Part shown: one piece after another, positions 9,736 through 54,536 of the stretch
Numbering within the stretch: position 1 is the stretch's first letter
How the letters are laid out: the number at the start of each line of letters is the position of its first letter
Origin: Candidatus Latescibacterota bacterium
GTDB lineage: Bacteria; Latescibacterota; UBA2968; UBA8231
Reading direction: 5' to 3'
DNA: 64,000 bases
Assembly (NCBI GenBank): GCA_965223905.1
Contig: CBDCXV010000001.1
Location: 1,184,001-1,248,000, forward strand
The notes under the pieces: generated by a model
What the model saw: the letters and a program-made list of their open reading frames with translations, nothing else
The model's database searches: none
Told to the model about the DNA's origin: nothing
Made by a program: the position numbers and the translations under genes

Positions 9736-9744
9736 TTTAGCTCC

Positions 9745-17559: not shown

Positions 17560-17815
17560 TTGAACCTCTTTCCATCCCATTCGGACTCTCTTCAACTGAG
17601 TGGCTCCTCTGACGGGGCGACTCCGGAGTTGAGCGCTCTGCCTGTGAATCTCGAGCGGGAGTTTAGTAGGTTGGGACAATCCGCTTTCAGCTTCAAGGGG
17701 CTCACCGTGGGCACAGCTCTATGTGGTGCCATCGGCACCATCGCCCCTCCGGCGTCGCGGAACGCTCGATACAGCCAGTGGTCGCGTCACCACGATCACT
17801 AGGCCCTCGTGAAAG

Positions 17816-19666: not shown

Positions 19667-22252
19667 TCAATACACCAGAGCGACTGTCTGGAGGGCGTGT
19701 TTCTTGTCGAGGCCGGCACCATCGGTGTCGGCCTCCAGGCCCAATCTCACTGCATACAGTCCCGGAGGCGCCAAGTGGCCAGAGTCATCCGTGCCGTCCC
19801 AGGCGATCCGATAGCGACCCGCACCAGTTTCGCGGCGCTGCGTCAAGCGGCGCACGAGCCGACCGCTCACATCGTAGATCTCCATCTCCACGGTCTGGTT
19901 CGCCCCGACCAGCACGAGGGTAAACTCCACCATGACCTCATCGTTGATACCGTCGCCGTTGGGAGAGGCGACTCGTGGCGAGATATTCAGTTCCCAAAAC
20001 AGCACCCTGCTCTCGGGCTGTGCGACCACGATGAACGTGCTGCTGGCGACCTCGCCGGTGGCGTCCCCCGGATCGACCCGCTGCCAGAATTCCGAGTCCG
20101 AGTTGCGCAGGGAAGCCTCCAGAACACCGCCGCTCGAATACAGCGTCGCGGGAAAATCCAGCCGCAGGACCTCTATTCCTGATTCCACGGGAGGGAATTT
20201 CACATGCAGACTGTCTCCATAGCCCAACACCTCGAGGCCCGGGCTCTCATCCAGCTCTGTGGCCGGCCCGGAAAACAGGCGTATGTGCTTCTGCACATCA
20301 TCTCCCTCGCCCAGTACCATGCCAGATGGCGGCCGCACCAACAGCTCGTCGAATTGCCGCTCCAGCGTGTCCACCTTCACATACAGCGAAAAGGAGCGCT
20401 CGACGCCCATCGCCTCCACCAGCGTCGGCGTGACTTCGCCCAGTAGTCGCCGCGCGAAGGGATCGGAAAAGCGCAACCGGACCGACCGGAGAGTGGCGGC
20501 AGTATGAGCGTCGTCGGAGAGCAACGTCGCCCGGACCTTGACGATTTTCCGCGGCGACGGCGAGGTGATCTTGCTCCCGGAGGGGTCCTCGTAACGCCCG
20601 CTCAGAGGCGACCAATCCGGTCCCTCTTCGTGAAGGAGTATCTTCTCGCCCCGGATGCTCTTGTAAGCCCTGCTGTAGTACTTTTTCGCCCCCGCGTCTC
20701 CCTTCCCGAGCAACTGCCCTTCAGTCGTGTAGTAGAGCGTATCTGTGATCACGGTGTTTCCCGTCTTCGTCTGCAGCACCACCTGCGTCCCGGGCGGTGT
20801 GTCCGCCTCCCACGATATCTCGGTGAGATTCTTGCTTCTCCGCATCTCGATGTTGTCCGACTCCAGCCACACCTCCGGCTGGAAGCCCGAACCGAACAGC
20901 TGCATTTCCGCCAGATAGGCGTTGGCCCACCCCTCCCACAGGAGCCGGAAGAAGCGCGCCTTGACCGGATCGAAATCGTGCCGATCGATAAGCATGGTGC
21001 TCGCCGGGCGGTAGCCGGAATACTCCCGCTCGATGCGCGTCGCCACCGTCCATACGAGGCTACCGTCAGCATGCCGTTGACCGTCTGAGAAATTCAGCTC
21101 GTAATTGGAGAAACCGCGAGCCGAACCGCTCCCCCGAAAATTCGTGGCCATTCGCTGGCTGTCGACCCAGTAGGATGAACCCAGATCGACCACAAGGTCG
21201 TCCTGACCCGTGGTATTCTTCAAAATGATGCTCGTGACCAGATCATGGTCGAGGAAGGCTCCGGGCTCGATCTCTTGCCGCGTCACGATCGTCCCACCGC
21301 GGAACAGCGTCCCGCCGAGGATCTCGTCGCCACCCCCCCAGACTTCAAGCTCCGCCAGCCGGGGCCGCTCACGGCGGAAGTAGCGGATGCTGCCCCGTCT
21401 CTCGGGCTCCAGCTTCCAGTAGACTTTCTCGGGTACTGCCGACTCCCTCGTGTCGCTGAGGCGCGTGGAATATTCCACCAGCCCCTTTTCCCCGGCATCG
21501 AGGCCGTCGTAATCCAGTTTACTCACCTCGGCGCCGCGGTCCAGATTACTGCCCCGGACGACGACCTGCACGAACCTGACGAGACTCTCTCTCGCTTCCT
21601 GGCCGGCGTTGGACAGATCCACTTCGAAGTGCCGCCGGGTCCTGTTGGGCTCGATCGTCTGTATCACCGACAGGTACTCGATGGCATTGCCGCCGAGCGC
21701 GGAGATCGGCTTCTGGCCGTCCGAGGTGAGGACGTCAAACAGGAGAAAGGGATCACCCTGCCCGGGACCGACGAAACGCACGACGAGCCGGTTGGCGAAG
21801 ACGACCCGTCCCAGATCCACCGTGAACCACCACTCGTCGGCCAGATTGATTTGGGCTGACGACGGGGGGTCGGGCTCCCAGTAGGTGCTCATGTCGCCGT
21901 CGAAGACATTGACTACATCCTCACGGTTCGAGCCGGCCTGCACGGCGTCGAGCAGCTCGATCTCCTCCGTCGGCTTGTTCCTCAGGTGCTTTGGTGGCCG
22001 TTGGCGCAAGGCTTCTACGATTTCGAGGGCGGCGTTCGTGTGCCTGCGCAGGCGCCGCGGACGAACGCCGTCCGCGGAGACCTCGACGGTCGCGGCGGCC
22101 GATACCCAGTTCTCGAAGTGACGGCTCCCCTCGATTACCACTTGGTTCGCCCTGATCGAGTGACCCCTCTGGGCCCAGGCGTCGGTGACGGGGAACAAGA
22201 GAAGCGAAGCAACCAGCAGGCGATAGGCGATGTCGCGTAGCGATTCGGGCAC
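19667..22252 (-). CDS. Secreted discoidin-like multidomain protein with FlgD/T9SS-like C-terminal domain
   Basis: Signal peptide (...DAWA|Q); 'FDGDMSTYW', 'FTVDLG', 'LAELEVWG'; CTD 'SPNGDGIND...IYDVSGRLVRRL...WDGTDDSG...PPGLY...VALVY'. Confidence 0.85.
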   Translation of the reverse strand: MPESLRDIAYRLLVASLLLFPVTDAWAQRGHSIRANQVVIEGSRHFENWVSAAATVEVSADGVRPRRLRRHTNAALEIVEALRQRPPKHLRNKPTEEIELLDAVQAGSNREDVVNVFDGDMSTYWEPDPPSSAQINLADEWWFTVDLGRVVFANRLVVRFVGPGQGDPFLLFDVLTSDGQKPISALGGNAIEYLSVIQTIEPNRTRRHFEVDLSNAGQEARESLVRFVQVVVRGSNLDRGAEVSKLDYDGLDAGEKGLVEYSTRLSDTRESAVPEKVYWKLEPERRGSIRYFRRERPRLAELEVWGGGDEILGGTLFRGGTIVTRQEIEPGAFLDHDLVTSIILKNTTGQDDLVVDLGSSYWVDSQRMATNFRGSGSARGFSNYELNFSDGQRHADGSLVWTVATRIEREYSGYRPASTMLIDRHDFDPVKARFFRLLWEGWANAYLAEMQLFGSGFQPEVWLESDNIEMRRSKNLTEISWEADTPPGTQVVLQTKTGNTVITDTLYYTTEGQLLGKGDAGAKKYYSRAYKSIRGEKILLHEEGPDWSPLSGRYEDPSGSKITSPSPRKIVKVRATLLSDDAHTAATLRSVRLRFSDPFARRLLGEVTPTLVEAMGVERSFSLYVKVDTLERQFDELLVRPPSGMVLGEGDDVQKHIRLFSGPATELDESPGLEVLGYGDSLHVKFPPVESGIEVLRLDFPATLYSSGGVLEASLRNSDSEFWQRVDPGDATGEVASSTFIVVAQPESRVLFWELNISPRVASPNGDGINDEVMVEFTLVLVGANQTVEMEIYDVSGRLVRRLTQRRETGAGRYRIAWDGTDDSGHLAPPGLYAVRLGLEADTDGAGLDKKHALQTVALVY

Positions 22253-22262
22253 GGTTATGCCT

Positions 22263-23879
22263 TTACAAGTTCTCCTCGAAGACCTCGACGCCGTATTTCT
22301 GGCGCAATCCTCTGATGAACTTGACGTATTTCAAGCCTGATCTGTGGAGGGTGACATAGGCCTTTGCACGCCGCTGCGAGTACGCGTTGAACGGCTTCGT
22401 CGTGGAAGGGCGCCGCTCCTGGACCACGAGTATGGTGAAGCCCTCCTTCCCTCTGATCGGGCCGGCTACTTCCCCGATTCCCAAATCCTTGACGATATCC
22501 CACCAGCCGGGATACAGGGCCTCTTCATACCTGGTCAACTCGACTCTCCCGCCGTGGTGTTCCGCCCCCTCGCGGATGGTGTGCAGGGACGCGAGCTCGA
22601 CTGGATCGGCGCCCGCGTCGATCTGCCGGCACAGCTCCTCCGCCCGTTGTCTGGTCCCGACCAGGATCTCGGTGACGACGATGGTTTCGATCGTCTGAAA
22701 CTTCTCGGGATGCCGCTCGTAGAAAGTGCGCGCTTCCTCGAAGGTGACCTCGGGAATGAGGTCATCCACGCCTCGTTTACGCAGGCGGCTCACGAGCTGG
22801 TCCTCTCTCTCGTCGTTCACCGCCGATTCGATCACCGGGTCGTCGTCGAAGCCGAGGCGACGGCCTTCTTCGAGAAACAGCCGCAAGGGTAGAACGGCCT
22901 TCACGAGGGAGTCCACTCGGTCTGCATTGGTGAAGTCCGCTCTAGGTAACAGGGTGCGCAGATTTCCGAATGTCACGTTTCCTCCCGCGAAAGTGCACAG
23001 GACCTGATCGTCGAACCGGGAGCTGTCCGCGACGTCCCCGGCAAACGCTTGCGACAGCCGTGCGATAGTCGAGTCGATAGTCTGAGGTGCGTAGGCCTCG
23101 AGCAGAGAGTCCACGACGACCAGGGTCCGCTCCTTCTTTTTTCGCTGCAGGACCTCCCCTCTGACGAGGTCTTCCGCCTGCGCCAGCGGCACCGGTATTT
23201 CGTCCAGAATCTTGATCACCATCCACTTGCCTTGGAACGGCAGGGGCTCCGACAGTTCACCGACTGCCAGCTTGAAAATATGGTGTTTCAGAACCCAAGA
23301 GGTTTTGTCCACGAGGAGATAGACGCCGCTGTCTCCCCCCTGGTCCCGGGTCTCGTGTTCCGACCGCTCTCTGGCGAGCTGGGCGAAACTGGCCCCCGCT
23401 TCCAGCTCCTCCAACACATGCTCCGCCTCCTTCCACGTCGGCACGAGAATGCTGGCCACCCTGAGGGCTCGATCTCTCTCCGTGGCGTGGAAATGCTCGA
23501 TAAGCTCGTCCTCGGAGACGCTGACCTTCCGGTGGATCTCCAGGCTGGAGTAGCGCCTGGCGATCTGCGTCTCGCGGAACCGCGCCAGCCTTTTTCTGAA
23601 GCCGGGTTCCCTGTCGATGCCCAAACTCATCGCCTCCGCGAGCAGGACTGTCTTGTCGACCAAGCTGCGCAACAGAGCGCTATCGGTCTGGGCGTTCTCC
23701 GGCGTCATACGGACAAACTGCGCCTTGAACTGTTCGAAATCGGCTCTCGTGATGGCGCGGCCGTCGACCGTTGCCAGCACGGCGGCAGGCGGTGCGGCCT
23801 TCACCTGCTCAGACGGAAATCCCGACAGAGCCAGCGCCACAGCGACGCTGCAAAGGTGCGGTGCGGATCTGATCATCAT
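22263..23879 (-). CDS. Parvulin-type peptidyl-prolyl isomerase, SurA/PpiD-like, two PpiC domains
   Basis: 'VLATVDGRAIT', 'GASFAQLARERS...GGDSG', 'VGELSEP'; second domain 'GEVAGPI'. Confidence 0.85.
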   Translation of the reverse strand: MMIRSAPHLCSVAVALALSGFPSEQVKAAPPAAVLATVDGRAITRADFEQFKAQFVRMTPENAQTDSALLRSLVDKTVLLAEAMSLGIDREPGFRKRLARFRETQIARRYSSLEIHRKVSVSEDELIEHFHATERDRALRVASILVPTWKEAEHVLEELEAGASFAQLARERSEHETRDQGGDSGVYLLVDKTSWVLKHHIFKLAVGELSEPLPFQGKWMVIKILDEIPVPLAQAEDLVRGEVLQRKKKERTLVVVDSLLEAYAPQTIDSTIARLSQAFAGDVADSSRFDDQVLCTFAGGNVTFGNLRTLLPRADFTNADRVDSLVKAVLPLRLFLEEGRRLGFDDDPVIESAVNDEREDQLVSRLRKRGVDDLIPEVTFEEARTFYERHPEKFQTIETIVVTEILVGTRQRAEELCRQIDAGADPVELASLHTIREGAEHHGGRVELTRYEEALYPGWWDIVKDLGIGEVAGPIRGKEGFTILVVQERRPSTTKPFNAYSQRRAKAYVTLHRSGLKYVKFIRGLRQKYGVEVFEENL

Positions 23880-23993
23880 GGCTGATCGATTGTCCTCAAG
23901 CAAAGCGAACCGCCCACGAACACGCCAGTGCCCTCAACTGCAATCCTCGTATTCTCGACGCCGAAGTTTCAAAGATTTCTATTGCATGGCGCA

Positions 23994-26954
23994 CTAACGC
24001 AGTCCGGCGAAGACAGTCATGTACCCCAGCCCCGCCGTGGACGACTCAGAATCGTCGCCGATGACCTCCAGGGAGCGCTGGTCGATGCGGAGGCCGACCT
24101 GGGTCGTCAGTGCATATCCGCGGTAGTCGCTCACGTTTGTGAGCTGGATAGCCGCGGCGGTGCCGCGAAAATCTCCGGATGTGTCACCCGCCAGATCGCC
24201 CTCACCCCGCAGGTTGTAGAAGAATCGCTGCTCGAGGCCCGCTTTAATGCGAGTTCTCCTGAGGATGGGAAATTCGAAGAGGAAGAAGCCAATACCATCC
24301 CACGAGCGCTGCTTCTCCTTCGTCAGGGCGAACGGGACTTGGCGGAGGAACTCGCTCTTGAACCTGGGCGAAATCGTGAAGTTACCCAATCGGTGGGTGT
24401 ATTCGATTTTGTTGATAAGGCCGAGAAAGCCGGAATTCTCGCGACCGTAGCGTCCTTCGATGCCGAAGGGATCGAATACGGACAGAGTGTCGCCGGCCTC
24501 GTCCACCGTCACCTGTACGTCCGCATCCCGCTGCTGCCAAGTCTCCCACTTGAAGCGGTGTAAGGTCTTCCAGTTCAGCGAGGATTGGTACTGCCAGTCG
24601 GTGTAAAAGGTATTGATCCACGTATCCTCCGCCGCCAGGGGGTCTCCGATCTGCTCCATCTGCCCCGATGAACCCGTGGGCCGCCCCTCCTCAACGGGCT
24701 GCATCACCCACTGGATCAGGTCGTCGGCGATGGTATCCTTCGCGCTCCTGAGCATGTCGAACACGCGCAGCCGTCCCGCCGACGACCAGTCGCGCTCGTA
24801 GGTGAACATGCCGTAAGTCGTGTGGTTCCGGCGCCGGGATTTCCCCTCATCCTGCTGCAGTTGCCCGAGGGTGAGCTTGCTGCCGGGGGTGAACTCGGCG
24901 CTGCCGTACAGATTGTAGCCGAAATGGTCCCTCCTGTACGGGTAGTCCGGTTCGTCATCATTTTCGAAGCGCTCGACCCAGCCGTTGTTGTTCAGGTCGA
25001 TGCCGAACAGGAACTCCGGCCGGTCGGAGCTGTAACGCAGGAATGGCTCGTCGTAATCCGGGAAGAAGTTAGGGCGCTCCGGAGTGCTGTTCTGGTTGAA
25101 GTCGGAGATGAAATCGAGATTCTCGTCGTAGCCGGGAAAGAGATCCGGGTCCGGTACTCCCCTGCCTTCTATCGAATCGAATCCGCGTCGCGGCACGAAG
25201 GATCCCTCGCGGACGCGGTGCCAATCCGGCTGACGGTCATTGTCGTCGTTGTCATCGACCCACTCGTAGAGTAGCCTCGTGGCGTCGGGCGAGTAGTCGG
25301 GCAGCCCGCTACCGTCCAGGGGCAGTACGCTCGTGGTGTATTCGTCGTCCATGCCGAAGCCCTCGGCGAACAGCGAAAACGGGCCAACCCCCTGCCATGA
25401 CAGATTCACCATCCAGCCTAGGGCGTTCCTGTCGCCCTGGATCCCGGAGATGGCGCGGTGCTGATCGCGGCCCAGTCCCGGGTACTTGCGGTACTGGGTG
25501 TTGACGTTGATCTCACCGTAGACGTCGATGCCGTGGTAGCCCCGAATCTCGGCAGTGAGACCCATGATGGTGGCGGCGGTGGGGAGGCCGTAGTCGAAGA
25601 CGACTTCGCGCTGGTTGAGGCCACTCTCGATGTTCCCCTCGGCCCGTGCGACGGGCCTGAACTGAGGTACGCCGAATTTATCCGTCTGTCGGTCCGAGGT
25701 GACCTCTACCCGGTAGTCGTTGGCCAGGATGAGCCTGACCCGCAGGTTCTTTATCGCCGACAGGGCCTCCTGTGCGTCCTCGCGGTTCAAGCCGACCTGC
25801 GTCTGAAGAAGAGAGCGCAGTGTCAAGCGCTCGACAGACGCCCGCTGCTCGTCGTCAGTCACCGTGGGCGGCACGTCGAGCAGGTAACTCAAGACGATGG
25901 CGTCCGGGCCGTCCGCGGTGCGAAGCCCATCCACGAATTTGCCCCCGCCGACTCCCACCTCCCCGGTGAGGAACTGCAGTCCCGCAATAGAGCCGAAGCC
26001 GATGCCGCTGCCCACGATGACGGTGTCTCGCGGCACCATGGCGACCGTGTCGCCGAACACCTCCTGCCGCACGAGTGTCGTCGTGATCTCGATTTCGTCG
26101 CGCACGAGGACGGCGCCGCCTTTGCCGTCTTCGGGGGAGTCATCCGACAGCCGCACGACGAGCGTCGTGATACCCTTGGAGAGCTGCTCGGGCGCGAGGT
26201 ACCCCTTGAGCGGATTCCCCTGCCCGGCGTTGAAGGCGCCATTGTTGTTGTGGCTGTTGACCAGATTGAACCCGAGGGTGAGGGCGTCGGTGACGTCCAC
26301 TTCCAACCTGCCGCCCACCAGATTCGTCATGTTCTGGGTGCTCGTGTCCCCGGTGCCGAGAAAGGGGTCACTGATCCGGGAGAACAAAGCGGTCGTTCGG
26401 TACGGACCGGCTTCGAGGCTGGCGACGACCCCATTGAAGCCGGCCTTGCGGAAGATCATGGGGGTGAGCAGAGCCGACACCTCGTCACCGACGAGGACGG
26501 AGACGGCGTACTCGCCCTTGCGGTCAGAGCTGATGAGCAGGCGGTCGAACCATTTGTCATAGCGGCCACCCGCCTGAACGATCTGCGAGCTCCCAGAGAC
26601 TTGCGGCTGGCTCTGGCGCCAGTCGTAAACCAGCCATCCCTTGGTGGTGAGGTTTCCGTACACGTCGTAGAAGTAGTCACCTTCCAATGACCTGTCGATG
26701 TAGCGCTGGTATCGCTCGCGGGCGAGATTCGTGTACTCCCACTGGCTGCGCCCGAGTTCGGCGAACATCGTCGGGGGCACGTACCAGCGGTGCACGGTCG
26801 GGTCGAGCGCATTCGTGTAGATGGGAACGCCGGAGCTGCTGTAGACCATGTCCTCGCCCGGGCGGGTTCCCAGGTGATTGCCGTAATCCTGAGCCGTTAC
26901 AGACGTGCTCGCGAGGGCGAGGCAGGCCAGTGCGACGGCGAGTCGGGAAAACAT
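23994..26954 (-). CDS. Large exported protein, putative outer-membrane beta-barrel (paralogue 3)
   Basis: Signal peptide; shared N-terminal block LDPTVHRWY...EGDYFYD...GWLVYDWRQ; acidic loops DDNDDND, DENLDFISD, DLNNNGW; amphipathic C-terminal strands ending YMTVFAGLR. Confidence 0.8.
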   Translation of the reverse strand: MFSRLAVALACLALASTSVTAQDYGNHLGTRPGEDMVYSSSGVPIYTNALDPTVHRWYVPPTMFAELGRSQWEYTNLARERYQRYIDRSLEGDYFYDVYGNLTTKGWLVYDWRQSQPQVSGSSQIVQAGGRYDKWFDRLLISSDRKGEYAVSVLVGDEVSALLTPMIFRKAGFNGVVASLEAGPYRTTALFSRISDPFLGTGDTSTQNMTNLVGGRLEVDVTDALTLGFNLVNSHNNNGAFNAGQGNPLKGYLAPEQLSKGITTLVVRLSDDSPEDGKGGAVLVRDEIEITTTLVRQEVFGDTVAMVPRDTVIVGSGIGFGSIAGLQFLTGEVGVGGGKFVDGLRTADGPDAIVLSYLLDVPPTVTDDEQRASVERLTLRSLLQTQVGLNREDAQEALSAIKNLRVRLILANDYRVEVTSDRQTDKFGVPQFRPVARAEGNIESGLNQREVVFDYGLPTAATIMGLTAEIRGYHGIDVYGEINVNTQYRKYPGLGRDQHRAISGIQGDRNALGWMVNLSWQGVGPFSLFAEGFGMDDEYTTSVLPLDGSGLPDYSPDATRLLYEWVDDNDDNDRQPDWHRVREGSFVPRRGFDSIEGRGVPDPDLFPGYDENLDFISDFNQNSTPERPNFFPDYDEPFLRYSSDRPEFLFGIDLNNNGWVERFENDDEPDYPYRRDHFGYNLYGSAEFTPGSKLTLGQLQQDEGKSRRRNHTTYGMFTYERDWSSAGRLRVFDMLRSAKDTIADDLIQWVMQPVEEGRPTGSSGQMEQIGDPLAAEDTWINTFYTDWQYQSSLNWKTLHRFKWETWQQRDADVQVTVDEAGDTLSVFDPFGIEGRYGRENSGFLGLINKIEYTHRLGNFTISPRFKSEFLRQVPFALTKEKQRSWDGIGFFLFEFPILRRTRIKAGLEQRFFYNLRGEGDLAGDTSGDFRGTAAAIQLTNVSDYRGYALTTQVGLRIDQRSLEVIGDDSESSTAGLGYMTVFAGLR

Positions 26955-29798: not shown

Positions 29799-29811
29799 AA
29801 CGAGCGTCCCC

Positions 29812-32166
29812 TCAATAAGCGACTGCGATGACGCCGGTAGCGGTCGATACGACGCCGACGGAAGTCGACACTCTGGGTCCGGCGTCCACGGAAACCGAAT
29901 AGATGTAATTGCCAGGCGGCGTCAGGTCGCCGCCGGCGTCGGTGCCATCCCAAGGCCAGGCAAAACGACCGCTGCTGCGAAGCTCCTCACGGCTCACGAT
30001 CAAGCGCCCCGAGAGATCGTAGATCTTTATCTGCACCAATGTGGGAGCCCCGATATTCGTGAGGTCGAAGCGGATGAGGGACCTGTCGTTGGCACCGTCT
30101 CCGTTCGGCGTCACGACAGGCGGGTCGGCTTCCACGTTTACGAGCAGGTTCGGGGTAATCGGCACGACCACCGACAGGTTCCTCGAACCGAGACTGCCGA
30201 CGGGCCGTTGAGGTGGGTCGGGATCGGGCCGATCGGGCCTGCTGAGATCCGCCGCATTGCCGGCGATAACCGACTGACCCACGACGGGATTGTCGGCATT
30301 GCGCACCCGCGCCGTGAACTGGGTGCCGAAGCGCAGAACGGCATTGTCGAAGTCGACCCTGATCAGACCGCCGCTCTGCATCCGCGGAAACGAAATGACG
30401 AAGCCGTCGTCCCGCACCTCGGTGATGGAGATGTTGTCGGCCGTGAGGGGCAGAGCTTCGTCGCTCAGAGCGCTGCCGGAAAAATCGGCCCGCTCCACGA
30501 CTCCGTCCGACCCGCTGATGACGACCTCGCGCACGGCGGACGTCCGCAAGGGGGTGTCGATCTCCAGCTGATCGAAACCGATGCCACGAGGGCCGGGCCG
30601 GTTCAAAACCGCGTAGGTAAACGGTGTCGTCTCGCCTACGACCGCGGTGCGCGGCAGGATCTCGGCGATCAGGGAATCTGTCAACGCCGGCCGCGACACG
30701 TCGAAAGCGAGCCCTCCGAGGCCGGTGGCGGAGTCGAAGGAACCATTTTCGAACTCCACCATGAACTGGAAGTATCGCCGCGGGTTCGGCGAGGTGACCG
30801 GCACCCCGGCTCCCAGACTCCCCAGCGCGTCACTCTCCACGAGTCCAGACAGGGAATACGGAGCGGACCAGTCACTCCAGTTGGTCAGGTCGTCCTTCAG
30901 ATTTCTCTTGTCGCTGTCGGCTACGCCCGCGTAGTAGTCCCGATCGATCTCGAGCTCCAGTCTCTGCTCGAGGGGCAGCTCACTGAAGAAGAGGAGGGCC
31001 TCTCTGCCATCGACATCGGGGTTGTCCAGGACGGTCGTCACGATGCTCTTCAACTCGGCATCCTCGACGTCGGCCGCCCGTTTCCACAGAGCGTCGATAG
31101 GGATGTCGTGCGGCTGTATCCCGCCGCTGCCGAGCACGGACGCCGATGTCACGTGCACGAGGATGACGCGTCCCGACGCCTGCAGTCCAACGCGGGGATA
31201 CACGATTGGCTGCGGATCGACGCCGGTGCGGGTGCGGATCTGCGCCTTCGCCAAGAACGGATCGCCCCTGTGCTCGAGAACCCAGCGGATGTTCCCCAGC
31301 AGGGAGGGCTCGTCAAAATCGAAGACGTTCGAGACGTATCTGGCCTCGGGCACATAGCCGCGGGCGAAGATCTGGAATTCGGCGATCTCGAAGTCTGTAT
31401 TGGAGAGCGATTTGAGCCTCAGATGACGGACGAACTGCGGCTCGAATTTCAGGTCGACCACCGCGTCCTCGTTCTGGGGCACGAATCCCCCATCGAGATT
31501 CGGGAAACGGAGGATGTTGTCGCGTTCGTTCTCCGGCGCTCCGTCGTTGACGAAGATCTCGAACCCCTTGAGGAAGTCCCTCTGAAACGGATATCGAGGT
31601 GCGGGATAGTCGGAGTCGGCGTTGCGAGGAAAGAACTTGATCCGGTTGATGCCGAAGATGGCTCCCAGGTCGAACTGGATGATCATGCCGAAGGCGTTGG
31701 CGCTCTGCCCGGGCTCGTCCGCCCGCACCTCGAGGGCGGTGTCCCCGTCGTCGTCGATCATGAGGGAAAAGCTCTTCTCGAGATCGCGAAAGCCGAAGGT
31801 CGGCGTGGTCATGCTGCCGCCGCGCGCCTCCAGGGCGAGCATGATGTTCTGAGTGGTGTCCGCTCGTTGCGGAAAGATCCAGTTCGCCCTGTCCGCCACG
31901 CCGAAATCGATGACCCCGCCGGGAGCGTTCGTCTGTTCCACGGAGTGGGCCCCCCGGATTACGATCGCATCGATTTTTTTACACCGGTCGCACGATGCTC
32001 CTTCCCGACGCCAGACCTCACCTCGTTCACCGCCCACGATGACGGCCTGGGTCTGGGCTTGCGCCGAGGCCAGCCACCCCGTCGCTACTACTACGAGGAC
32101 TCCAGCGGCTCCGGCGCCGAAGCGCGGCAGCTGGTGGGGGATGACGATGCGCTTCGTCCGTATCAT
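29812..32166 (-). CDS. Secreted discoidin-like protein with FlgD/T9SS-like C-terminal domain
   Basis: Signal peptide; 'IQFDLG...INRIKFFP', 'EIAEFQIFARGY', 'SPNPRRYFQF'; CTD 'TPNGDGAND...IYDLSGRL...WDGTD...VIAVAY'. Confidence 0.85.
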   Translation of the reverse strand: MIRTKRIVIPHQLPRFGAGAAGVLVVVATGWLASAQAQTQAVIVGGERGEVWRREGASCDRCKKIDAIVIRGAHSVEQTNAPGGVIDFGVADRANWIFPQRADTTQNIMLALEARGGSMTTPTFGFRDLEKSFSLMIDDDGDTALEVRADEPGQSANAFGMIIQFDLGAIFGINRIKFFPRNADSDYPAPRYPFQRDFLKGFEIFVNDGAPENERDNILRFPNLDGGFVPQNEDAVVDLKFEPQFVRHLRLKSLSNTDFEIAEFQIFARGYVPEARYVSNVFDFDEPSLLGNIRWVLEHRGDPFLAKAQIRTRTGVDPQPIVYPRVGLQASGRVILVHVTSASVLGSGGIQPHDIPIDALWKRAADVEDAELKSIVTTVLDNPDVDGREALLFFSELPLEQRLELEIDRDYYAGVADSDKRNLKDDLTNWSDWSAPYSLSGLVESDALGSLGAGVPVTSPNPRRYFQFMVEFENGSFDSATGLGGLAFDVSRPALTDSLIAEILPRTAVVGETTPFTYAVLNRPGPRGIGFDQLEIDTPLRTSAVREVVISGSDGVVERADFSGSALSDEALPLTADNISITEVRDDGFVISFPRMQSGGLIRVDFDNAVLRFGTQFTARVRNADNPVVGQSVIAGNAADLSRPDRPDPDPPQRPVGSLGSRNLSVVVPITPNLLVNVEADPPVVTPNGDGANDRSLIRFDLTNIGAPTLVQIKIYDLSGRLIVSREELRSSGRFAWPWDGTDAGGDLTPPGNYIYSVSVDAGPRVSTSVGVVSTATGVIAVAY

Positions 32167-32168
32167 TT

Positions 32169-34976
32169 CTATCTCTGTACTCCGGCGTATATGGCGATGA
32201 AGCTGGTGGTCTCCGTGCGGTCCTTGCTCACCTTCTGGAAGGCGCCCGTATCCGTCCCCCGCACCCGCTCTGCGAAGATGCGCGCCACGCGCAGGCCGAC
32301 CTGGGTCGTCAGCAGGTACCCCTCGTAACTCGACTGGTTCGTCATCTGTAGCGCGACGTTCATGGAGCGCTCGTCCCCGGTCGCTCCCACCTGACCGAGT
32401 TCCACCATCTCGTCTTCGTCCGCGACGCGGTCGTCGAACTGAGCGAGCTCGAGACCTGTGGTGATGGTGCTGTGAGACATATAGGGGAACGAGGCGGTGA
32501 GCATGGCGATTCCCAACCAGTGTTTCAGATCGTCCTCTTCCAGCACCAACGAGTCTCGTCGCAGATACTCGCTCTTCAGCCTCGGCCGCAGCGCCAGGGG
32601 CCCGAGGTTGAAGTCGTACTCGACCTTGTTGACAAGCCCGTACATGCTCGGCGAGTCGGCCATGGGCCGGTTCGTGAGATCGCGCGGATCGTCGTCAGCA
32701 TGGTTGAAGAGCTCATACTTCAGCTTGTTCACCAGCTTCACGTTGGAGATCGCCGTGTAGTCGAACTGTAGCCAGGCCGTGTTGATCCACGTGTCCTGTG
32801 CCGGCAGAATGTCAGCCGCCACGGGCCGATTGATCTCGCCGAAGACGGCCGACGCCACCACCCGGTCGTCCGGGATCGTGTCCGAAGCCCGCTTCAGCAT
32901 ATCGAAGAAGCGCAGCCGACCCAGCCCGGGATAACCCTTGTCGAACGTAAGCAGTCCGTAGTTTGTAACATTGTCGCGATTGTCTGACAGCATGCGTTCG
33001 TTCGTACGACCCACCATCACGCGCGTCGCCGGAGTCAGGTGGGTGCCCACGAAGGCGTTGTAGCCTTTGCGGTCTCCCTTGTAGGGATAGTCGGGCAGCT
33101 CGTCGTCTTCGAAGCGGTCGATCCAGCCGTTGTTGTTCAGATCGATGCCGAAAAGAACTTCCGGCCGGTCCACGTCGTGGCGCAGAAAGGGCTCCTCGTA
33201 GTCCGGCAAGGCATTGGGCACCGCCCTGTTGTCGTTCTGGTTGAAATCCGAGATGAAGTCGTTGTTTTCGTCCCATCCGGGAAAGATATCCGTGTCGCCT
33301 GCCGTAGAGCCTGCTCGAACCCAATCAGGCAGCGCGTCCTGATCGTCGTTGTCGTCCACGAATTCGTAGACGGAGGCGCCGGGCGCGTTGTATTGGATGT
33401 TGCCGCTCGTGTCCACGATGAAGACGTTGGTGGTATAATCGAGGTCGATGTCGTATGCCTCACCGTAGACGAAAAGCGGATACTCTTGCTTGGAGATGGT
33501 GAGATAGCGGGCGTCGGCCGTGCGCCGCGATATCTTGTGGCCCTTGTTGGAGTTGAACAGGGCGGCGTTGGGATACTGGGCGTAGCGGAAATTGCGATCC
33601 CACTCGCCGTAGAAATCGATGCCCCAGATGTTACTGCCCTGGAGTGTGAACCCGGCGACGACGCTCGCCGTCGGCAGCCCGTAGTCGAACCTCACCCGCT
33701 GGATATTCGAGATGTCCTCCACGTTGCCGGAAGCGCGCTTCACGAGCAACAGGGCCGGCTCCCTCTCGTCGATGACGTCGGCGGTCAGCGGCGGCAGAGG
33801 CACCCCTCTCCGGGCGGTCTGCCTGTCGGACCAGATCTCGATTTTGAAGTCATTGGCCAGAACGCAGTCGAACTCCACGGCGACGATGCTCGTCACCTCG
33901 GGGCCGAGGTAATCGGGGTCGGTGAAGTCGTAGTTCAGGATGATGCGTTCGTCGCCGTCAGCGGCGAGGAATCCGGCGCGTTCGAAGCCGCCGAACACGG
34001 CCGGCCACTCCGTGCCGGGGCGAACCACCTGCTCGAGCGTCCACACCGTCTCCCTTCCGGTGTCGAAGTCGCGGCTGGTGATGCGGATGTCGTGAGCGAA
34101 CAGAGCCGCACCCCCTTTCCCGTCCTGCGGCGAGTCGTCGCTGAGAATGACGGCAATGGCGGACATCGGTGAGCTGCTCTGTCCGGCGGTCAGGTTCCCC
34201 GCCACGAAGTTGCCGTCGAACATGTCGAGTGCGGCATTCGAATTGCGGGCATCCACCAGCGTGCCGCCGATGGTGATGAAGTCACCCACCTGCGCCGTGG
34301 CGCGCCCGGCGATCATACTCGTCGAGTTCGTCTGGCGCCGCGGCGCCGGAAACGTTCCGGACAGCGGATCGCTGATTCGCGATGCGAGAACGGTGAGGGC
34401 GTATTTGTCGGAGAGGAGGTCCGCCTGCACGCCGTTGAAGGTGGGTTTGGAAAACGTCATCGGCGTCAAGGTAGTGCGGAGGCGATTGCCCACGGTGATG
34501 GCGTAGGCGTTCTGGCCCTTTTCGTCGCTGGCTATGGTGACGGAGGTGAACCACTGCTCGAACCGGCTGGTCTTGAATATGCTGCTGCCGTCTTCCTTGG
34601 GCTGATCCTGGCGCCAGTCGTAGATCAGCCAGCCGCGGCTCACGAAATCGCCGTAGAAGTCGAAAAAGTAGTCTCCTTCTAAAAGCGTGTTTACGTAGCG
34701 CTGGAACGGATAGCGGGCGTAGTTGGTGAATTCCCATTGCCGCCACCGGTACTCGGCGTGCAACTCCTGAGGGGCGTACCAATGATGTAAAGACGGGGTA
34801 AGAGCGCCAAAGAGGACGCCGGGGCCGCGCGGCTCCCAACTGACTTCGCCGCCGCGCTGTATGCCGACGCGGGCGCCGTAATCCTGCGTACCGGCCGAGG
34901 CGGCGGCGCAAGCCAACCACGTTCCGACGACGACTGTGAGCGTACCGGGGAGTTTCACATCGAGGAAGATAGACAT
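32169..34976 (-). CDS. Large exported protein, putative outer-membrane beta-barrel (paralogue 1); start uncertain
   Basis: Colinear with paralogue 2 over the full length; ends FIAIYAGVQR. Confidence 0.8.
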   Translation of the reverse strand: MSIFLDVKLPGTLTVVVGTWLACAAASAGTQDYGARVGIQRGGEVSWEPRGPGVLFGALTPSLHHWYAPQELHAEYRWRQWEFTNYARYPFQRYVNTLLEGDYFFDFYGDFVSRGWLIYDWRQDQPKEDGSSIFKTSRFEQWFTSVTIASDEKGQNAYAITVGNRLRTTLTPMTFSKPTFNGVQADLLSDKYALTVLASRISDPLSGTFPAPRRQTNSTSMIAGRATAQVGDFITIGGTLVDARNSNAALDMFDGNFVAGNLTAGQSSSPMSAIAVILSDDSPQDGKGGAALFAHDIRITSRDFDTGRETVWTLEQVVRPGTEWPAVFGGFERAGFLAADGDERIILNYDFTDPDYLGPEVTSIVAVEFDCVLANDFKIEIWSDRQTARRGVPLPPLTADVIDEREPALLLVKRASGNVEDISNIQRVRFDYGLPTASVVAGFTLQGSNIWGIDFYGEWDRNFRYAQYPNAALFNSNKGHKISRRTADARYLTISKQEYPLFVYGEAYDIDLDYTTNVFIVDTSGNIQYNAPGASVYEFVDDNDDQDALPDWVRAGSTAGDTDIFPGWDENNDFISDFNQNDNRAVPNALPDYEEPFLRHDVDRPEVLFGIDLNNNGWIDRFEDDELPDYPYKGDRKGYNAFVGTHLTPATRVMVGRTNERMLSDNRDNVTNYGLLTFDKGYPGLGRLRFFDMLKRASDTIPDDRVVASAVFGEINRPVAADILPAQDTWINTAWLQFDYTAISNVKLVNKLKYELFNHADDDPRDLTNRPMADSPSMYGLVNKVEYDFNLGPLALRPRLKSEYLRRDSLVLEEDDLKHWLGIAMLTASFPYMSHSTITTGLELAQFDDRVADEDEMVELGQVGATGDERSMNVALQMTNQSSYEGYLLTTQVGLRVARIFAERVRGTDTGAFQKVSKDRTETTSFIAIYAGVQR

Positions 34977-35029
34977 ACTGAACTCGTTGTGCGAGCATGG
35001 GTTGCGCTCTACCAGGACTCCTGGCCGAT

Positions 35030-35075
35030 CCGGAGCGAGACGCTGTGCGCCAGTCCGCTTATGGCCTCGCGCGCT
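35030..35075. repeat. 46-bp exact copy of 37811-37856 (3' end of the GH42-like gene)
   Basis: ccggagcgagacgctgtgcgccagtccgcttatggcctcgcgcgct is present at both sites. Confidence 0.95.
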
Positions 35076-35099
35076 GCTCTGATCGTCGAACAAACATCG

Positions 35100-37094
35100 C
35101 TACATATATCCCAAGATCCGTCCCTTATCGACGGTGAGCGCGTAGATTACACCCCACATGCCCCCTACTACCACCTGTCCGAGAATCAAACCCAGAAAGA
35201 ACGGTTTCAGGCCCTGAAACAGCTTGCTTCCCCCCACGTGCAGGATAATGGCCTTCAGCAACCAGGCGAGAAAGGCGGAGAACCAGATCGAGCTCGTCAG
35301 CCATCCCACGGCAATCACCAGCCCGATGGGGTGCAGAGGCCACCAGTGCCAGCGGTAGTGCGCCCACATCAAAAACCACTCGATTGATCCGCCGATTCCC
35401 TTGAACAGCCATCCCCTCATGTTGGCGTCTGGCAACTTCTCGATCGTCGGACCTATGTAGGGCCAGCCATGGCCGCCAGTCCATTTGAGCTGGGCCAGGT
35501 TGATGGCGCCGTGGCTGTAGGACATGTTGAGTGTCGTGAACAGCGATGCTCCGAGGCTGGCGATCAGCGCGATCATCAAACCCCAGAACAATCGTGTCTT
35601 GCTCCCCCGTATGCTCTCGGCCAGCTTGAGCCCGTTGGAGGCGGCAACCATGGGCGAGGTGCGCGACTCTCCCTGCCAGATGAAGGTAAAGGTGAGCGCT
35701 ATCAGCCCCTTGGCTCCCAGAATCGACGTCCCGAACCCCGATATGATGAAATAGGCCGGCACGATCGGGCTGCGGGCCGTCGGCACGCCCGCCGTCGCCA
35801 CGACGCGGGCGACGAGGGCGAAGAAAATGAGACTGACGATGACAAGCACCGGGACGAACACGAGAGGCACGCCCGAGCGCCACAGCCATATGCAGACGAT
35901 GACGAAGCTGACGAGAAACCCGACGGCGGCGGTGCGGTAGCGCAACAGCTCCTCGCTGTCGACGCCGCGGCGCGCCGGATTCCAGGCCGTGTTCAGCATA
36001 TCCCGTAGGTGGACGCGGGCGCTCCACAGTCCGAAGAGGATGAAGACGATGACGGCGCCCGTCTGCTGATGGGTCAAATCCGCGGCGATCGGGTAGGACT
36101 CGTAGGCGCTCAGTCGTTCGGTGCTGGCGATACCGAGCACGTTGAAAATCCCCTCCTGCACCCTGCACAGGACGTAGAAGAACCAGATACTGAAGATGAG
36201 ATCGAGGCTGGCCAGATAGAAGAAGCCGATGTAGGCGAAGTTGACTGTCAGACCCAACGTCACCGTGTCGCGAAACAGCGTGAGGGCGCCCCCTATGTGC
36301 GGGTCCGGGAGGAACGGCCAGAAGAAGTTGAGTCCCTTGAAGGAGAAGAACACGAACGGCACGGCGAATCCCACCCACATGACTTTCCGTTTGAACAGCG
36401 GCGCAATTTGCGATGTCATGCTCCTGTCGTTCTCGAGCATGCTCTGTGGCAGCTGCATCATCGGATAGGCCAGGCGCTCGTGCACCGACCACTGCCGGTG
36501 CAGGATGGCGCTCATGCAGATGAGCATGAAGCCCATGACGACGATGAGGCCGAGCCAGTACGCCATCGGCTCCACCCACGATTCCCACGGAATCGAGGCT
36601 CCTTTCGGCAACCCTTCGTAGTATCCCTTGATCGCCTCGCGATCCTGTGGCACCATCCATGTCGGTATTTGATCGTGAAAGAGCTCCTCGAACCTGTTCT
36701 CCGGAGAGGCGTAGTAGTACGGGTAGACCAGCGTTCCGATGAGAAAGAACACGAGACCCCAAGTGGGCACCGTGACCGCCATGAGGAGCATGCAGTAGAT
36801 GAGCACGAGGTCTGCCTTCGACAACTGGAAGCGACGGCCGAGATAGCCGACGATGATGTTGACGACGAGGACACAGACGAAAAAGAAGATGGCCCCGGGA
36901 GAAGAGGGGTTGTAGCCGATCAGGTAGTACTGGTATACCACCACGAAGGGGGCGACGATACCGATGGCTAGGCAAAGAGCCGTGCCGAGAATGAGCCCCT
37001 TGAGGCTGAAGGCAGAACTTGCCACGCTATCTCCGATCGCCGAGAGCCGTGTCTGAGATACGGCACTCACGAGAAACCACAGACTCGAGGCCAT
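35100..37094 (-). CDS. DUF6785/DUF6784 polytopic membrane protein (putative peptide/OPT-like transporter); real start probably GTG near 37026
   Basis: Many TM helices; 'ILHRQWSVHERLAYPM' and 'WWPLHPIG' signatures; 'KPFFLGLILG'. Confidence 0.8.
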   Translation of the reverse strand: MASSLWFLVSAVSQTRLSAIGDSVASSAFSLKGLILGTALCLAIGIVAPFVVVYQYYLIGYNPSSPGAIFFFVCVLVVNIIVGYLGRRFQLSKADLVLIYCMLLMAVTVPTWGLVFFLIGTLVYPYYYASPENRFEELFHDQIPTWMVPQDREAIKGYYEGLPKGASIPWESWVEPMAYWLGLIVVMGFMLICMSAILHRQWSVHERLAYPMMQLPQSMLENDRSMTSQIAPLFKRKVMWVGFAVPFVFFSFKGLNFFWPFLPDPHIGGALTLFRDTVTLGLTVNFAYIGFFYLASLDLIFSIWFFYVLCRVQEGIFNVLGIASTERLSAYESYPIAADLTHQQTGAVIVFILFGLWSARVHLRDMLNTAWNPARRGVDSEELLRYRTAAVGFLVSFVIVCIWLWRSGVPLVFVPVLVIVSLIFFALVARVVATAGVPTARSPIVPAYFIISGFGTSILGAKGLIALTFTFIWQGESRTSPMVAASNGLKLAESIRGSKTRLFWGLMIALIASLGASLFTTLNMSYSHGAINLAQLKWTGGHGWPYIGPTIEKLPDANMRGWLFKGIGGSIEWFLMWAHYRWHWWPLHPIGLVIAVGWLTSSIWFSAFLAWLLKAIILHVGGSKLFQGLKPFFLGLILGQVVVGGMWGVIYALTVDKGRILGYM

Positions 37095-44826: not shown

Positions 44827-44830
44827 ATGC

Positions 44831-44865
44831 AAAAAAGGGGGAAAATCCAACCGGATTCTCCCCCT
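44831..44865 (-). terminator. Rho-independent terminator after the CBM9-like gene
   Basis: Minus strand AGGGGGAGAATCC-GGTT-GGATTTTCCCCC followed by TTTTTT. Confidence 0.75.
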
Positions 44866-44899: not shown

Positions 44900-45817
44900 T
44901 TACTTGGCGACGGACGCCTTCACGTTCCCCCAGCTGTCCTCTTCGACCGCCGTGGCCATGAGCTCCTCGTCTATCTCCGTCAGGACGAAATCAGCCAGAT
45001 AGTCGGCATTGACATTGGACTCGCCGACCGAGGTCAGACTCCAGCGCGCGGTCTGCACCGGGTCTTCTCCGTCGTGGTCCCAGACGTTCACGCTCAGGCC
45101 GATGACCTCGCCCTCCATCATGAAGTGCTCGACGCTCCCCACGGGGTCCTGGTAGTTGAAGTCATCCCATGCTGTGAGCATGAATTCCGCGGTCACGCTG
45201 AACTCTTCGCCATTTCCCGGCGTGCCTGAGTTGATCGTGTAGGCGGCGTTCGTGTAGGGCAACTCACCATACCAGTCCGCAGAGGTCATCCACATCCAGA
45301 CCCACTCGCTGTTGTCGCCAAAGTTGTCACCCATGAAGAGGCCGTCGTCGAACCAGAGGTGGTAGATCTGGGCATGGCGACTCCTGTGCCGTGCGGCTTC
45401 CTCATCCGACATCCCTTCGACTTGCCAGTAGTTGCCGCCCGAATGGTCGGCGTCGATGGTGGGCTCGATATCGTCCGACTGAAACCAGTAGTCGTCGTAC
45501 CGCTCATAAGCCCAGTAGAGCTTGCTCGACCCCTGCACGAAACTCGTCATCCAGCGGAACGAAAGGTCGGATGGGTCGAGGCCTGCCTTCGACTCGTGAT
45601 CGCCCTCGTAGCTGTCGACGTTGTAGTTTTCGTGAGTGAGCCAGAATTCCTCCGGGACGATGTCCCAGTCGCGGAGGTCTCCGTCAAACACCGGCAGCTT
45701 GTCCGCCGGCCACTGCCAGATGATGCCCCGATAATCAGGCGGATCATGCGCGATTGCGGGGATGCTGAGGGCACAAATGAGCGCGCAGGCACCCGAACTC
45801 ATTGCCATCTGCTTCAT
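44900..45817 (-). CDS. Secreted CBM9/DOMON-like acidic protein with C-terminal TAVE..SWGxVK tail
   Basis: Signal peptide; 'PVFDGDLRDW'; 'GEVIGLSVNVWDHD'; tail TAVEEDSWGNVKASVAK; strong RBS AAGGAGGAG. Confidence 0.75.
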   Translation of the reverse strand: MKQMAMSSGACALICALSIPAIAHDPPDYRGIIWQWPADKLPVFDGDLRDWDIVPEEFWLTHENYNVDSYEGDHESKAGLDPSDLSFRWMTSFVQGSSKLYWAYERYDDYWFQSDDIEPTIDADHSGGNYWQVEGMSDEEAARHRSRHAQIYHLWFDDGLFMGDNFGDNSEWVWMWMTSADWYGELPYTNAAYTINSGTPGNGEEFSVTAEFMLTAWDDFNYQDPVGSVEHFMMEGEVIGLSVNVWDHDGEDPVQTARWSLTSVGESNVNADYLADFVLTEIDEELMATAVEEDSWGNVKASVAK

Positions 45818-53433: not shown

Positions 53434-53594
53434 CTACCTCCGCAAAGTGTGCGTCGGTCGGGAGTACGTGGCTGTCTCGGTCGCGGTCAAATCAGTATAG
53501 GTTGCGATCCCCGCGGCCGACAGCTCGGGGTCGCTGGCGGACTGCGGCATGCAGCACGATATTGACGCGCCCAACTCTGGAGAGGACGATCTCA

Positions 53595-54515: not shown

Positions 54516-54536
54516 CCCCCGCGTCAGGTCGTCTTC

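Follow-up and report, generated by a model that had tools for sequence, protein, structure and literature searches.

What might a bacterium do with genes for three very large secreted proteins of no known family, packed between genes for proteins that end in a sorting domain? The question is raised by a run of minus-strand genes in a stretch of 64,000 nt from a Latescibacterota-type bacterium (hereafter the window, within which all positions are counted). A first-pass annotation, made from the letters of the window, had delimited seven genes at 19667-37094 (-): three barrel-like proteins (here P1-P3), two proteins with a C-terminal domain, or CTD (C1 and C2), a peptidyl-prolyl isomerase resembling the chaperone SurA (PPIase) and an inner-membrane transporter (T). 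It had proposed that they form an export or display module of the outer membrane.

Judged from its sequence and its relatives, the window contains a single copy of a cell-surface cassette that is specific to its lineage and has very many paralogues, and in which probable cargo of a type IX secretion system (T9SS) is encoded beside the new protein family P. The cassette may consist of T9SS-displayed binding proteins docked on new outer-membrane barrels, probably for the capture and uptake of carbohydrate, an overall reading to which we give about even chances.

The coordinates of the open reading frames (ORFs) bear out the seven-gene run and reproduce the gaps quoted for it, which amount to 6 nt between T and P1, 2 nt between P1 and C1, 13 nt between C1 and P2, 0 nt between P2 and P3, 90 nt between P3 and the PPIase, and 10 nt between the PPIase and C2. 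Close spacing carries the run upstream past the limit first set for it, to 45817, and adds a GH42-like protein, a third C protein (C3) and a small secreted protein (S). The order of transcription is S, C3, GH42-like protein, T, P1, C1, P2, P3, PPIase, C2, and the features are listed in that order:

44900..45817 (-): S, 305 aa, secreted, CBM9-like; first gene of the run; C-terminal SWG.IKA-type tail
42781..44850 (-): C3, 689 aa; F5/8 type C domain and type-B-like CTD; PNGDG present in the translation
37802..42721 (-): GH42-like secreted protein, 1639 aa; beta-galactosidase-like core
35100..37094 (-): T, 664 aa, polytopic inner-membrane protein; DUF6785 and DUF6784
32169..35093 (-): P1, 974 aa; alpha-type P; true start probably 3' of the listed TTG
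29812..32166 (-): C1, 784 aa; type-B-like CTD in about the last 105 aa (29815-30129)
26955..29798 (-): P2, 947 aa; alpha-type P; reference for the residue numbering of P
27864..28154 (-): P2 residues ~549-645; acidic stretch, invariant, with D/N loops resembling EF hands; insertion that probably binds metal
26964..27866 (-): P2 residues ~645-945; 12 strands, 11 successive antiparallel hairpins; predicted membrane-spanning sheet
23994..26954 (-): P3, 986 aa; beta-type P; start abuts the P2 stop
22263..23903 (-): PPIase, 546 aa; periplasmic double parvulin of SurA-like architecture
19667..22252 (-): C2, 861 aa; F5/8 type C domain around residues 113-185; the last ~95 aa form the CTD (19670-19954)

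The P family and its C partners

By sequence comparison P1, P2 and P3 are members of one new family of about 930 aa, in which P2 shares 64% identity with P1 and 42% with P3. Profile scans placed none of the three in a Pfam or NCBIfam family. P2 as a single sequence had no match in the PDB, and two family profiles (A1 and A2) found chance-level matches only; those to an acetyltransferase, an EcoR124 subunit and MPEG1 (E 0.03-2) were dismissed on that ground. The family that the first-pass annotation could not assign thus remains without a Pfam, NCBIfam or PDB match. Among 8000 candidates scored, 755 were homologues of P2 at E<=0.001; the best 120 listed are all nameless or called 'hypothetical protein', none of these carries a Pfam domain, and the few that bear an organism name come from metagenome-assembled genomes (MAGs) of Latescibacteria/Latescibacterota or 'Gemmatimonadetes'. 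In a search of 1.84 billion representative sequences, 945 clusters matched the P profile at E<=0.001, and the stricter limit of E<=1e-30 left 336. The host genome (7.92 Mb, 11 contigs, 93.6% complete) is rich in the genes of the cassette: a census of its 20,090 ORFs of at least 120 aa gave 34 P, 71 C-like, 58 T-like and 22 PPIase ORFs, and a tblastn-type search with P gave 47 matches from 39 candidates. In a relative of the same family, genome G060, there are 65 P match rows, about 50 of them near full length.

The P genes of the host form 21 clusters, of which 20 contain C, 11 the PPIase and 6 T. For other genomes we used the 80 best loci, which come from about 35 MAG records and are biased to P2 orthologues. 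On the same strand as P, C was present in 78 of the 80, the PPIase in 34 (more have it on the other strand) and T in 16. P is tandem in 75 of these loci, and its order is fixed in 68 of 78, with an alpha type (P1/P2-like) followed by a beta type (P3-like). The neighbourhood of four gene types that had been proposed is therefore conserved as to C and tandem P, the SurA-like PPIase recurs both in the host and abroad, and T turns out to be an occasional member. In a sample of 121 genomes of the phylum, P was found at E<=1e-30 in 67, that is, in all 40 genomes of the host's own family and in none of the 29 and 13 genomes of two sister families, and the body of C (profile A5) in 59. Counted from the genome lists, 57 genomes have P and C, 10 P only, 2 C only and 52 neither, numbers that are a description and not a test, since relatives are not independent.

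C3 is a full-length homologue of C1 and C2, and the three differ in how clearly their domains are recognised by Pfam. CHU_C (PF13585) reaches 31.4 bits in C1, above its cut-off of 27. In C2, FlgD_ig (43.7 bits), F5_F8_type_C (36.2 bits) and F5_F8_type_C_2 (31.7 bits) exceed their cut-offs and CHU_C (23.8 bits) stays below 27, and in C3 all matches are below the cut-offs (CHU_C 24.4, FlgD_ig 19.9, F5_F8_type_C 18.2 bits). TIGR04131 gave 22.6 bits in C1 and 17.1 bits in another C protein, both below the cut-off of 35, and the PDB search matched C1 and C2 to the FlgD Ig domain only (C2 vs 3osv, E 1.9e-5). Among 34 C bodies, 15 have an F5/8 type C domain and 14 a NedA-like galactose-binding domain.

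The hallmark of the T9SS type-B CTD is a PNGDG..ND motif at its start. Using CTD profile models built from the host genome's own tails, we identified 150 CTD-bearing genes in that genome. Of these, 92 are type-A-like, with tails that start with YPNPFN, and none belongs to the C family; the other 58 are type-B-like, with tails that start with PNGDG..ND and end in VAY, and 47 belong to the C family. The PNGDG motif stands 40-125 aa from the C-terminus in 46 genes, as compared with none at a control offset. Of these 46 genes, 40 are of the C family and 37 have a P gene no more than 10 kb away, so that in the host genome the type-B-like tail belongs almost only to proteins encoded beside P. That the C proteins are CTD-tagged had been noticed at first reading; the tag now proves to be a type-B-like tail co-encoded specifically with P, in the host genome and across genomes.

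The first-pass annotation had taken the locus for an analogue of T9SS modules in another phylum, and had suggested looking for SprA and PorV in the host genome. Both searches gave a match: SprA_N scored 98 bits in a 2069-aa frame, and a gene directly 3' of PorU is PorV-like (91 + 48 bits, below the cut-off of 250). PorU itself reached 617 bits, above its cut-off of 420, and the search for GldK returned only weak formylglycine-type matches. With its SprA, PorU and PorV-like genes and 92 type-A-like CTD genes, the host has a T9SS of its own and the locus is not an analogue of one; C is very probably cargo of the T9SS itself. In the phylum sample, SprA is present in 112 of the 121 genomes, including 38 of the 40 of the own family and, for the two families that lack both P and C, 28 of 29 and 13 of 13. 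P and C are thus accessory to the T9SS and not part of its core.

In Bacteroidota, according to PMC9143113 and PMC12618676, type-B cargo binds and requires cognate PorP/SprF-like barrels, which are often co-encoded with it. In the window, no PorP/SprF-like gene adjoins C. Searches with PF11751 and TIGR03519 found nothing in the host genome, and control genomes did not validate these searches. In the phylum sample, marginal matches to PF11751 (20-28 bits) occur in 29 of 121 genomes, with none in the 40 of the own family and 25 in the 29 of a sister family that lacks P; one of them, G001:C224:1270-1833, lies directly upstream of a P triplet. When the relatives' PorP-like ORFs were used as phmmer queries, they retrieved three homologues in the host, two of them inside loci of a divergent P clade.

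The members of this divergent clade score 130-200 bits against P1-P3 and mostly stand in doublets or triplets. Its host loci, given as contig and positions, are C1:1489500-1509499 (L274), C2:278000-297999 (L275), C10:2100500-2120499 (L283), C11:903000-922999 (L285) and C3:1-13906 (L291). It has conserved neighbours of its own, a protein of about 1080 aa (4 loci) and one of about 400-425 aa (4 loci). The order in the divergent host loci with a PorP-like gene is C, PorP-like (~300 aa), P; in L275 two P genes follow, and in L285 there is one P, with a second 4 kb upstream of C. Since PorP-like genes stand between C and P, the cassette is tied to the biology of type-B cargo, and since the two kinds of gene coexist, P is better seen as an additional component than as a plain substitute for PorP. 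The idea of a larger barrel that simply takes the place of PorP needs changing in this light.

Fold and membrane location of P

All six non-transporter proteins of the seven-gene run have a hydrophobic, signal-peptide-like N-terminus and no later hydrophobic helix, as judged by eye and with Kyte-Doolittle windows, in agreement with the signal peptides reported for them at first. The description of P as barrel-like had been a guess, and we turned to covariation. From the search matches, the 80 syntenic loci and stretches of ten relatives and the host genome, we collected 585 distinct full-length P members. P sequences of <780 or >1250 aa, 9 of 588 rows with <85% coverage and 127 of 892 columns with >10% gaps were left out, and the alignment to the family profile kept 579 sequences and 765 columns, with an effective number of 336. 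Covariation was computed in the mean-field approximation, by inversion of the covariance matrix with a 21-letter alphabet in the zero-sum gauge, the gap state omitted, followed by average-product correction. Earlier tries, with 334 sequences, a reduced alphabet and the gap as reference, or with 295 sequences, were discarded for gap and indel artefacts or for noise in which parallel and antiparallel signals were about equal.

Among five-residue ladders scoring at least 14, 21 were antiparallel and 8 parallel, and over 30 column-shuffled alignments the count averaged 4.8 and never rose above 8, so that the antiparallel count tops both controls. The ladders include an unbroken chain of 11 hairpins over P2 residues 645-945, centred at about 675, 695, 724, 755, 778, 803, 823, 847, 868, 896 and 922. 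Nested ladders hold one register within two residues (for example 701-747, 706-740 and 720-729), and the arms are at most about 19 residues long. Such a hairpin meander fits a transmembrane barrel. Further hairpins occupy residues 140-245 and 448-527, and long-range antiparallel ladders, 240-456 and 517-649, link the three strand blocks across two insertions, one beta-rich and of about 200 residues, the other acidic and of about 115. Pairings cross in a sandwich-like manner in the segment 280-440. In the consensus, the hydrophobicity of the strands alternates. An invariant motif in the N-terminal part (166-177) covaries with 245, 500, 521, 841-849 and 942, which is the behaviour that would be expected of a domain lodged inside the barrel.

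P1-P3 thus combine two generic traits of outer-membrane beta-barrels, the signal-peptide-like N-terminus and the next-neighbour antiparallel strands, and from these sequence-derived data we consider it likely that P is such a barrel. The part of the guess that stands is the all-beta antiparallel meander; for closure of the sheet, which the word barrel implies, only two single covarying pairs were found.

Comparisons with known barrels and outer-membrane systems gave little. Pfam scans of P1-P3 and 52 diverse members found no signature of a secretin, an usher, Omp85 or a two-partner system, and there was no TonB_dep_Rec or Plug match, in line with the earlier remark that no motifs of secretins, BamA or TonB-dependent receptors were to be seen. 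Nor did PF11751 appear among the Pfam matches of the 52 members at E<=1, and TIGR03519 likewise had no match in P. By hhalign, P matched 8 PorP-like sequences with a probability of 0.5%, P being about three times as long as PorP/SprF (~300 aa), and the 21 TonB-dependent receptors of the host genome with 0.1-0.3%; the method is insensitive between barrel families, since PorP-like sequences against TonB-dependent receptors likewise gave nothing. The only Pfam signal that recurs in the 52 members is SlpA_C (PF21620), in 10 of them. It is restricted to profile positions ~232-304 and to the acidic segment of P, with a best score of 30.2 bits (cut-off 35) and a best E of 2e-7. In this segment, P2 ~549-645, D/N columns are invariant or near-invariant across the family. 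As the match covers an acidic stretch of about 70 residues and nothing else, we rejected a kinship of P with SlpA.

Capture, display or export

The proposed working of the cassette may be put as follows. C, with its discoidin/galactose-binding-type domain, conserved body and type-B-like CTD, would pass the inner membrane by way of Sec, leave through the outer membrane with the ordinary T9SS, and be held at the surface by the P proteins encoded alongside. P would form an outer-membrane barrel of about 18-22 strands, many of them in contact with its N-terminal domain, and would have two insertions, one beta-rich and of ~200 aa, the other acidic and metal-binding. In this type of locus it would act as a fixed alpha-beta pair. 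The SurA-like double parvulin would chaperone the large P barrels through the periplasm. The assembly would capture carbohydrate at the surface, aided by the CBM9-like S and the GH42-like enzyme; P would probably also be the conduit across the outer membrane, and the DUF6785/6784 protein, where present, would import the products across the inner membrane. The data show the gene content, the newness of the P family, its paralogy, the synteny, both types of CTD with their distribution, the T9SS core genes and the covarying hairpin meander. In this scheme we infer the closure of the barrel, its membrane location, the binding of P to C, the role of the chaperone, the class of substrate and transport. 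As in the first-pass annotation, we also infer the secretion and anchoring of C and the feeding of the importer. On the single points we lean towards a physical association of P and C and put their service in carbohydrate capture and uptake, tentatively, somewhat short of an even chance.

Four features hint at the handling of carbohydrate: the domains of galactose-binding type in C, the CBM9-like S, the GH42-like enzyme and the neighbours of T. The GH42-like protein matches Glyco_hydro_42 with 32 bits (cut-off 21) and Glyco_hydro_42M with 22.2 bits, below the cut-off of 25.8. S itself has no Pfam match; it clusters with 11 of the 81 ORFs that flank other host P/C loci, and one of the 12 members of this family matches CBM9_1 (E 4e-6). 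T scores 396.2 bits with DUF6785 (cut-off 25) and 88.6 bits with DUF6784 (cut-off 26.4) and has a maximum 19-residue hydropathy of 3.11. It had been labelled OPT-like, a label that we drop, as no OPT family appears in Pfam at E<=0.01; a PDB match of T to a 40-aa photosystem protein was dismissed as chance. DUF6785 was not found in the literature searched. Among 126 ORFs around 20 T genes there are 6 GFO_IDH_MocA, 5 xylose-isomerase-like, 4 MR_MLE, 3 aldo/keto reductase, 3 HpcH aldolase, 2 UxuA, 2 aldose epimerase and 9 PhyH dioxygenase proteins. Because these neighbours include enzymes of sugar and sugar-acid catabolism, the gene context suggests that the expanded DUF6785/DUF6784 family, with 58 host ORFs, is an uncharacterised family of carbohydrate importers.

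The PPIase matches Rotamase_2 (82.7 bits) and Rotamase_3 (55.3 bits), and SurA_N_3 with 19.7 bits, below the cut-off. Its score with the SurA equivalog NF008038 is 23.7 bits (cut-off 394), with a weak N-domain and two parvulin domains present. Of 5008 called genes, 54 have the tail of S, ..AVE..SWG.IKA.F followed by 0-3 residues, within their final 16 aa, as compared with 2, 1 and 0 at control offsets, and the tail matched nothing in Pfam, NCBIfam or the literature searched. Most of the genes with this tail encode secreted proteins of 200-335 aa, many of them CBM9-like S proteins beside P/C loci. From this distribution it looks like a genome-wide sorting or docking tag.

Near-identical DNA is present in sequencing runs that belong to 11 studies, and sponge metagenome is the label of several. 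Runs that share only a little of the sequence count as evidence of habitat no further than their labels. In one sponge metatranscriptome run, seven contigs match the locus over their full length, six identical and one with 3 differences, and an eighth matches over 34 nt only. The contigs cover T, P1, C1, P2, the P2/P3 junction (26859-27032) and the PPIase/C2 junction (22145-22362), both junctions being spanned by identical contigs, a hint from sequence that the locus is expressed.

Several observations speak against the reading set out above. As to the pairing of P with C, G060 has a single weak C-body match (5e-22) beside its 65 P matches, and in G003, at the threshold used, no C-body match stands beside the 16 P matches. 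The count in G060 makes it evident that P can work with partners other than C, and to go by its gene content the P of G060 must pair with a different or very divergent partner family. T is a facultative neighbour in the counts given above, and contigs from an RNA library are no proof of transcription. As to carbohydrate, the 81 ORFs flanking the host P/C loci are led by TPR (9), FG-GAP/ASPIC (4), YfiO (4) and DUF4159 (4), and no glycoside hydrolase family is among the 25 of 82 families shown; this census weakens the clues from the domains and is the reason why we hold carbohydrate uptake at the level stated. As to the barrel, the covariation map is noisy, since parallel ladders are not negligible, and the pairing of the first and last strands appears only as the single covarying pairs 942-166 and 938-224. 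Of the 585 P members, 74 end in F or Y, and a conserved aromatic residue stands five residues from the end, so that the C-terminal beta-signal is non-canonical. Both large insertions follow an even-numbered strand under either fitted strand count; given a periplasmic N-terminus, they too would lie in the periplasm, an uncommon arrangement among outer-membrane proteins. P has no detectable homology to any known barrel family.

Some further observations concern these neighbourhoods. A similar imbalance of P and C is found in G086, of the same genus as G060. Directly 3' of the run, at 14711-17679 (-), lies a pair of genes for an FG-GAP/ASPIC protein (584 aa) and a TPR protein (405 aa), whose families turn up again close to other P/C loci, where 9 of 81 ORFs are TPR and 4 are FG-GAP, and close to T genes, where 8 of 126 are FG-GAP. 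Upstream, 51871-56462 encodes a protein with a weak match to the GH127 middle domain, an aldo/keto reductase and a Kelch/NanM-like beta-propeller, which fit sugar metabolism. The G+C content falls to 0.497 at 8001-10000, as compared with 0.56-0.68 across the rest of the window.

The main rival to carbohydrate capture and uptake is display or adhesion only. P would then be a docking platform in a role like that of PorP/SprF or PorQ, with no transport, and the cassette would diversify adhesion, for example to the matrix of a sponge host. The exclusive pairing of the type-B-like CTD with P agrees with this, as do the anchoring of type-B cargo by PorP described in PMC9143113, the absence of T from most loci and a neighbour census without obvious carbohydrate-active enzymes (CAZymes) among the families shown. 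The N-terminal domain of P covaries with many strands, like a permanent plug, and the locus DNA occurs in sponge metagenomes, where adhesion proteins are plausible. However, PorP-like anchors make do with ~300 aa, and a barrel of ~930 aa, often present as an alpha-beta pair, goes far beyond that. The PorP-like genes that coexist with P in divergent loci may already fill the anchoring role, and the galactose-binding and CBM9-like domains and the GH42-like enzyme point to the handling of carbohydrate. On these grounds we consider display without uptake doubtful.

It is far less probable that P is a dedicated exporter, the version closest to the first-pass annotation, in which P would be a SprA-independent outer-membrane translocon for C or for a polymer. 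The tight coupling of P and C in the operon, the periplasmic chaperone-like protein in many loci and the large barrel size deduced from covariation would suit such a machine, but the host has SprA, PorU and PorV-like genes with 92 ordinary type-A cargo genes, the tail of C is recognisably a T9SS-type CTD (CHU_C over the cut-off in C1, FlgD_ig in C2), SprA accompanies P in 38 of the 40 sampled genomes of the own family, all of which have P, and P is devoid of the secretin, usher, Omp85 and two-partner signatures sought in Pfam. We give similarly little credence to P as a large secreted or periplasmic all-beta protein (a sandwich or a propeller-like stack, soluble or part of a surface layer, together with C), which would explain that only single covarying pairs were found for closure, the non-canonical C-terminal signal, the lack of homology to known barrels and the crossing pairings in 280-440, but which is at odds with 11 uninterrupted next-neighbour hairpins with arms of at most ~19 residues, unlike those of propellers or sandwiches, with long-range pairings that join three strand blocks in one sheet, with the alternating hydrophobicity of the strands and with the co-encoded SurA-like chaperone.

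The reading of C as displayed binding proteins docked on P barrels can be carried one step further. The alpha-beta pair may be a new plugged outer-membrane translocon, to which the CTD-docked, T9SS-delivered binding proteins would form a substrate-capturing lid, a proposal that we regard as unlikely in its full form. If true, it would be an independent answer to the SusC/SusD problem, not based on a TonB receptor, that arose in Latescibacterota and multiplied until a genome had 30-60 copies; further dedicated parts of the machine would be the SurA-like proteins particular to single loci and the small SWG.IKA-tailed proteins, about 50 in number.

Comparison with known systems

Latescibacterota form a widespread and uncultured group, prominent both in sponges and in sediments, and we know of no described route by which they take up polymers. 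The literature searched (titles and abstracts) has no description of such loci or of type IX secretion in Latescibacter. P is among the largest paralogous families of these genomes, with 30-65 match rows each, and is annotated merely as 'hypothetical protein'. Its strict pairing with the type-B-like tail takes the rule of cargo plus cognate barrel outside Bacteroidota, and suggests that the T9SS can also serve the assembly of stations for uptake or adhesion. P is a target for structural work on large barrels. Much as SusC/SusD pairs are used in Bacteroidota, the P/C pair could be a marker by which to annotate loci of particular substrates in these genomes.

Among well-characterised barrel proteins, the SlpA/OmpM group invites comparison. 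Deinococcus SlpA is a 30-strand barrel with metal-binding insertions in the lumen, according to PMC9388160. P, too, seems to be a large single-chain barrel, and its acidic, probably metal-binding insertion gives the local SlpA_C match. However, this match takes in only ~70 of the 656 positions of the profile and does not reach the cut-off, the genomic context differs, and P has no SLH domain, no coiled-coil stalk and no evidence of a trimer. The PPIase resembles SurA in its signal peptide, its weak SurA-like N-domain, its two parvulin domains and the presumed barrel clients encoded next door. It differs in falling far below the equivalog cut-off and in having 22 host paralogues, many of them locus-specific, whereas SurA is normally a single housekeeping gene.

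The SusC/SusD loci for polysaccharide utilisation (PULs) of Bacteroidota share with the cassette an outer-membrane protein of about 1000 aa (P, as predicted) that is paired with surface carbohydrate-binding proteins, the presence of dozens of paralogous loci, and enzymes and an inner-membrane transporter that are sometimes part of the locus. Unlike SusC, P has neither the TonB-dependent receptor and Plug signatures nor detectable homology to the receptors of the host, and no link to TonB is known. Unlike SusD, the binding proteins C carry a T9SS CTD and no lipoprotein anchor. Among the Pfam matches of the nine proteins of the run that were scanned, the SusD and TonB-dependent receptor families are absent, SusD not having been sought genome-wide, and the run showed neither a hybrid two-component regulator nor one of the ECF/anti-sigma kind.

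The closest parallel is the T9SS type-B cargo with its PorP/SprF partners in Bacteroidota (SprB-SprF, PG1035-PorP). There as here, the cargo gene adjoins the gene for an outer-membrane partner, a genome holds many paralogous pairs, and the T9SS core genes are present. C ends in a domain of ~95 aa that starts with PNGDG..ND and, in C1, exceeds the CHU_C cut-off; in the divergent loci a true PorP-like gene even stands between C and P. The differences lie in the partner, which at ~930 aa has no detectable homology to PorP/SprF and often comes as an alpha-beta pair, in the SurA-like chaperone within the cassette, in the Latescibacterota-type host phylum and in the numbers, with 58 type-B-like tails in the host genome as compared with the 12 type-B substrates reported for F. 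johnsoniae in PMC12618676. That T9SS cargo can have an outer-membrane partner encoded with it is already known, as is the SusC/SusD analogy; what is new is the partner family, with its size and its alpha-beta pairing, together with the SurA-like gene specific to the locus and the extent of the expansion.

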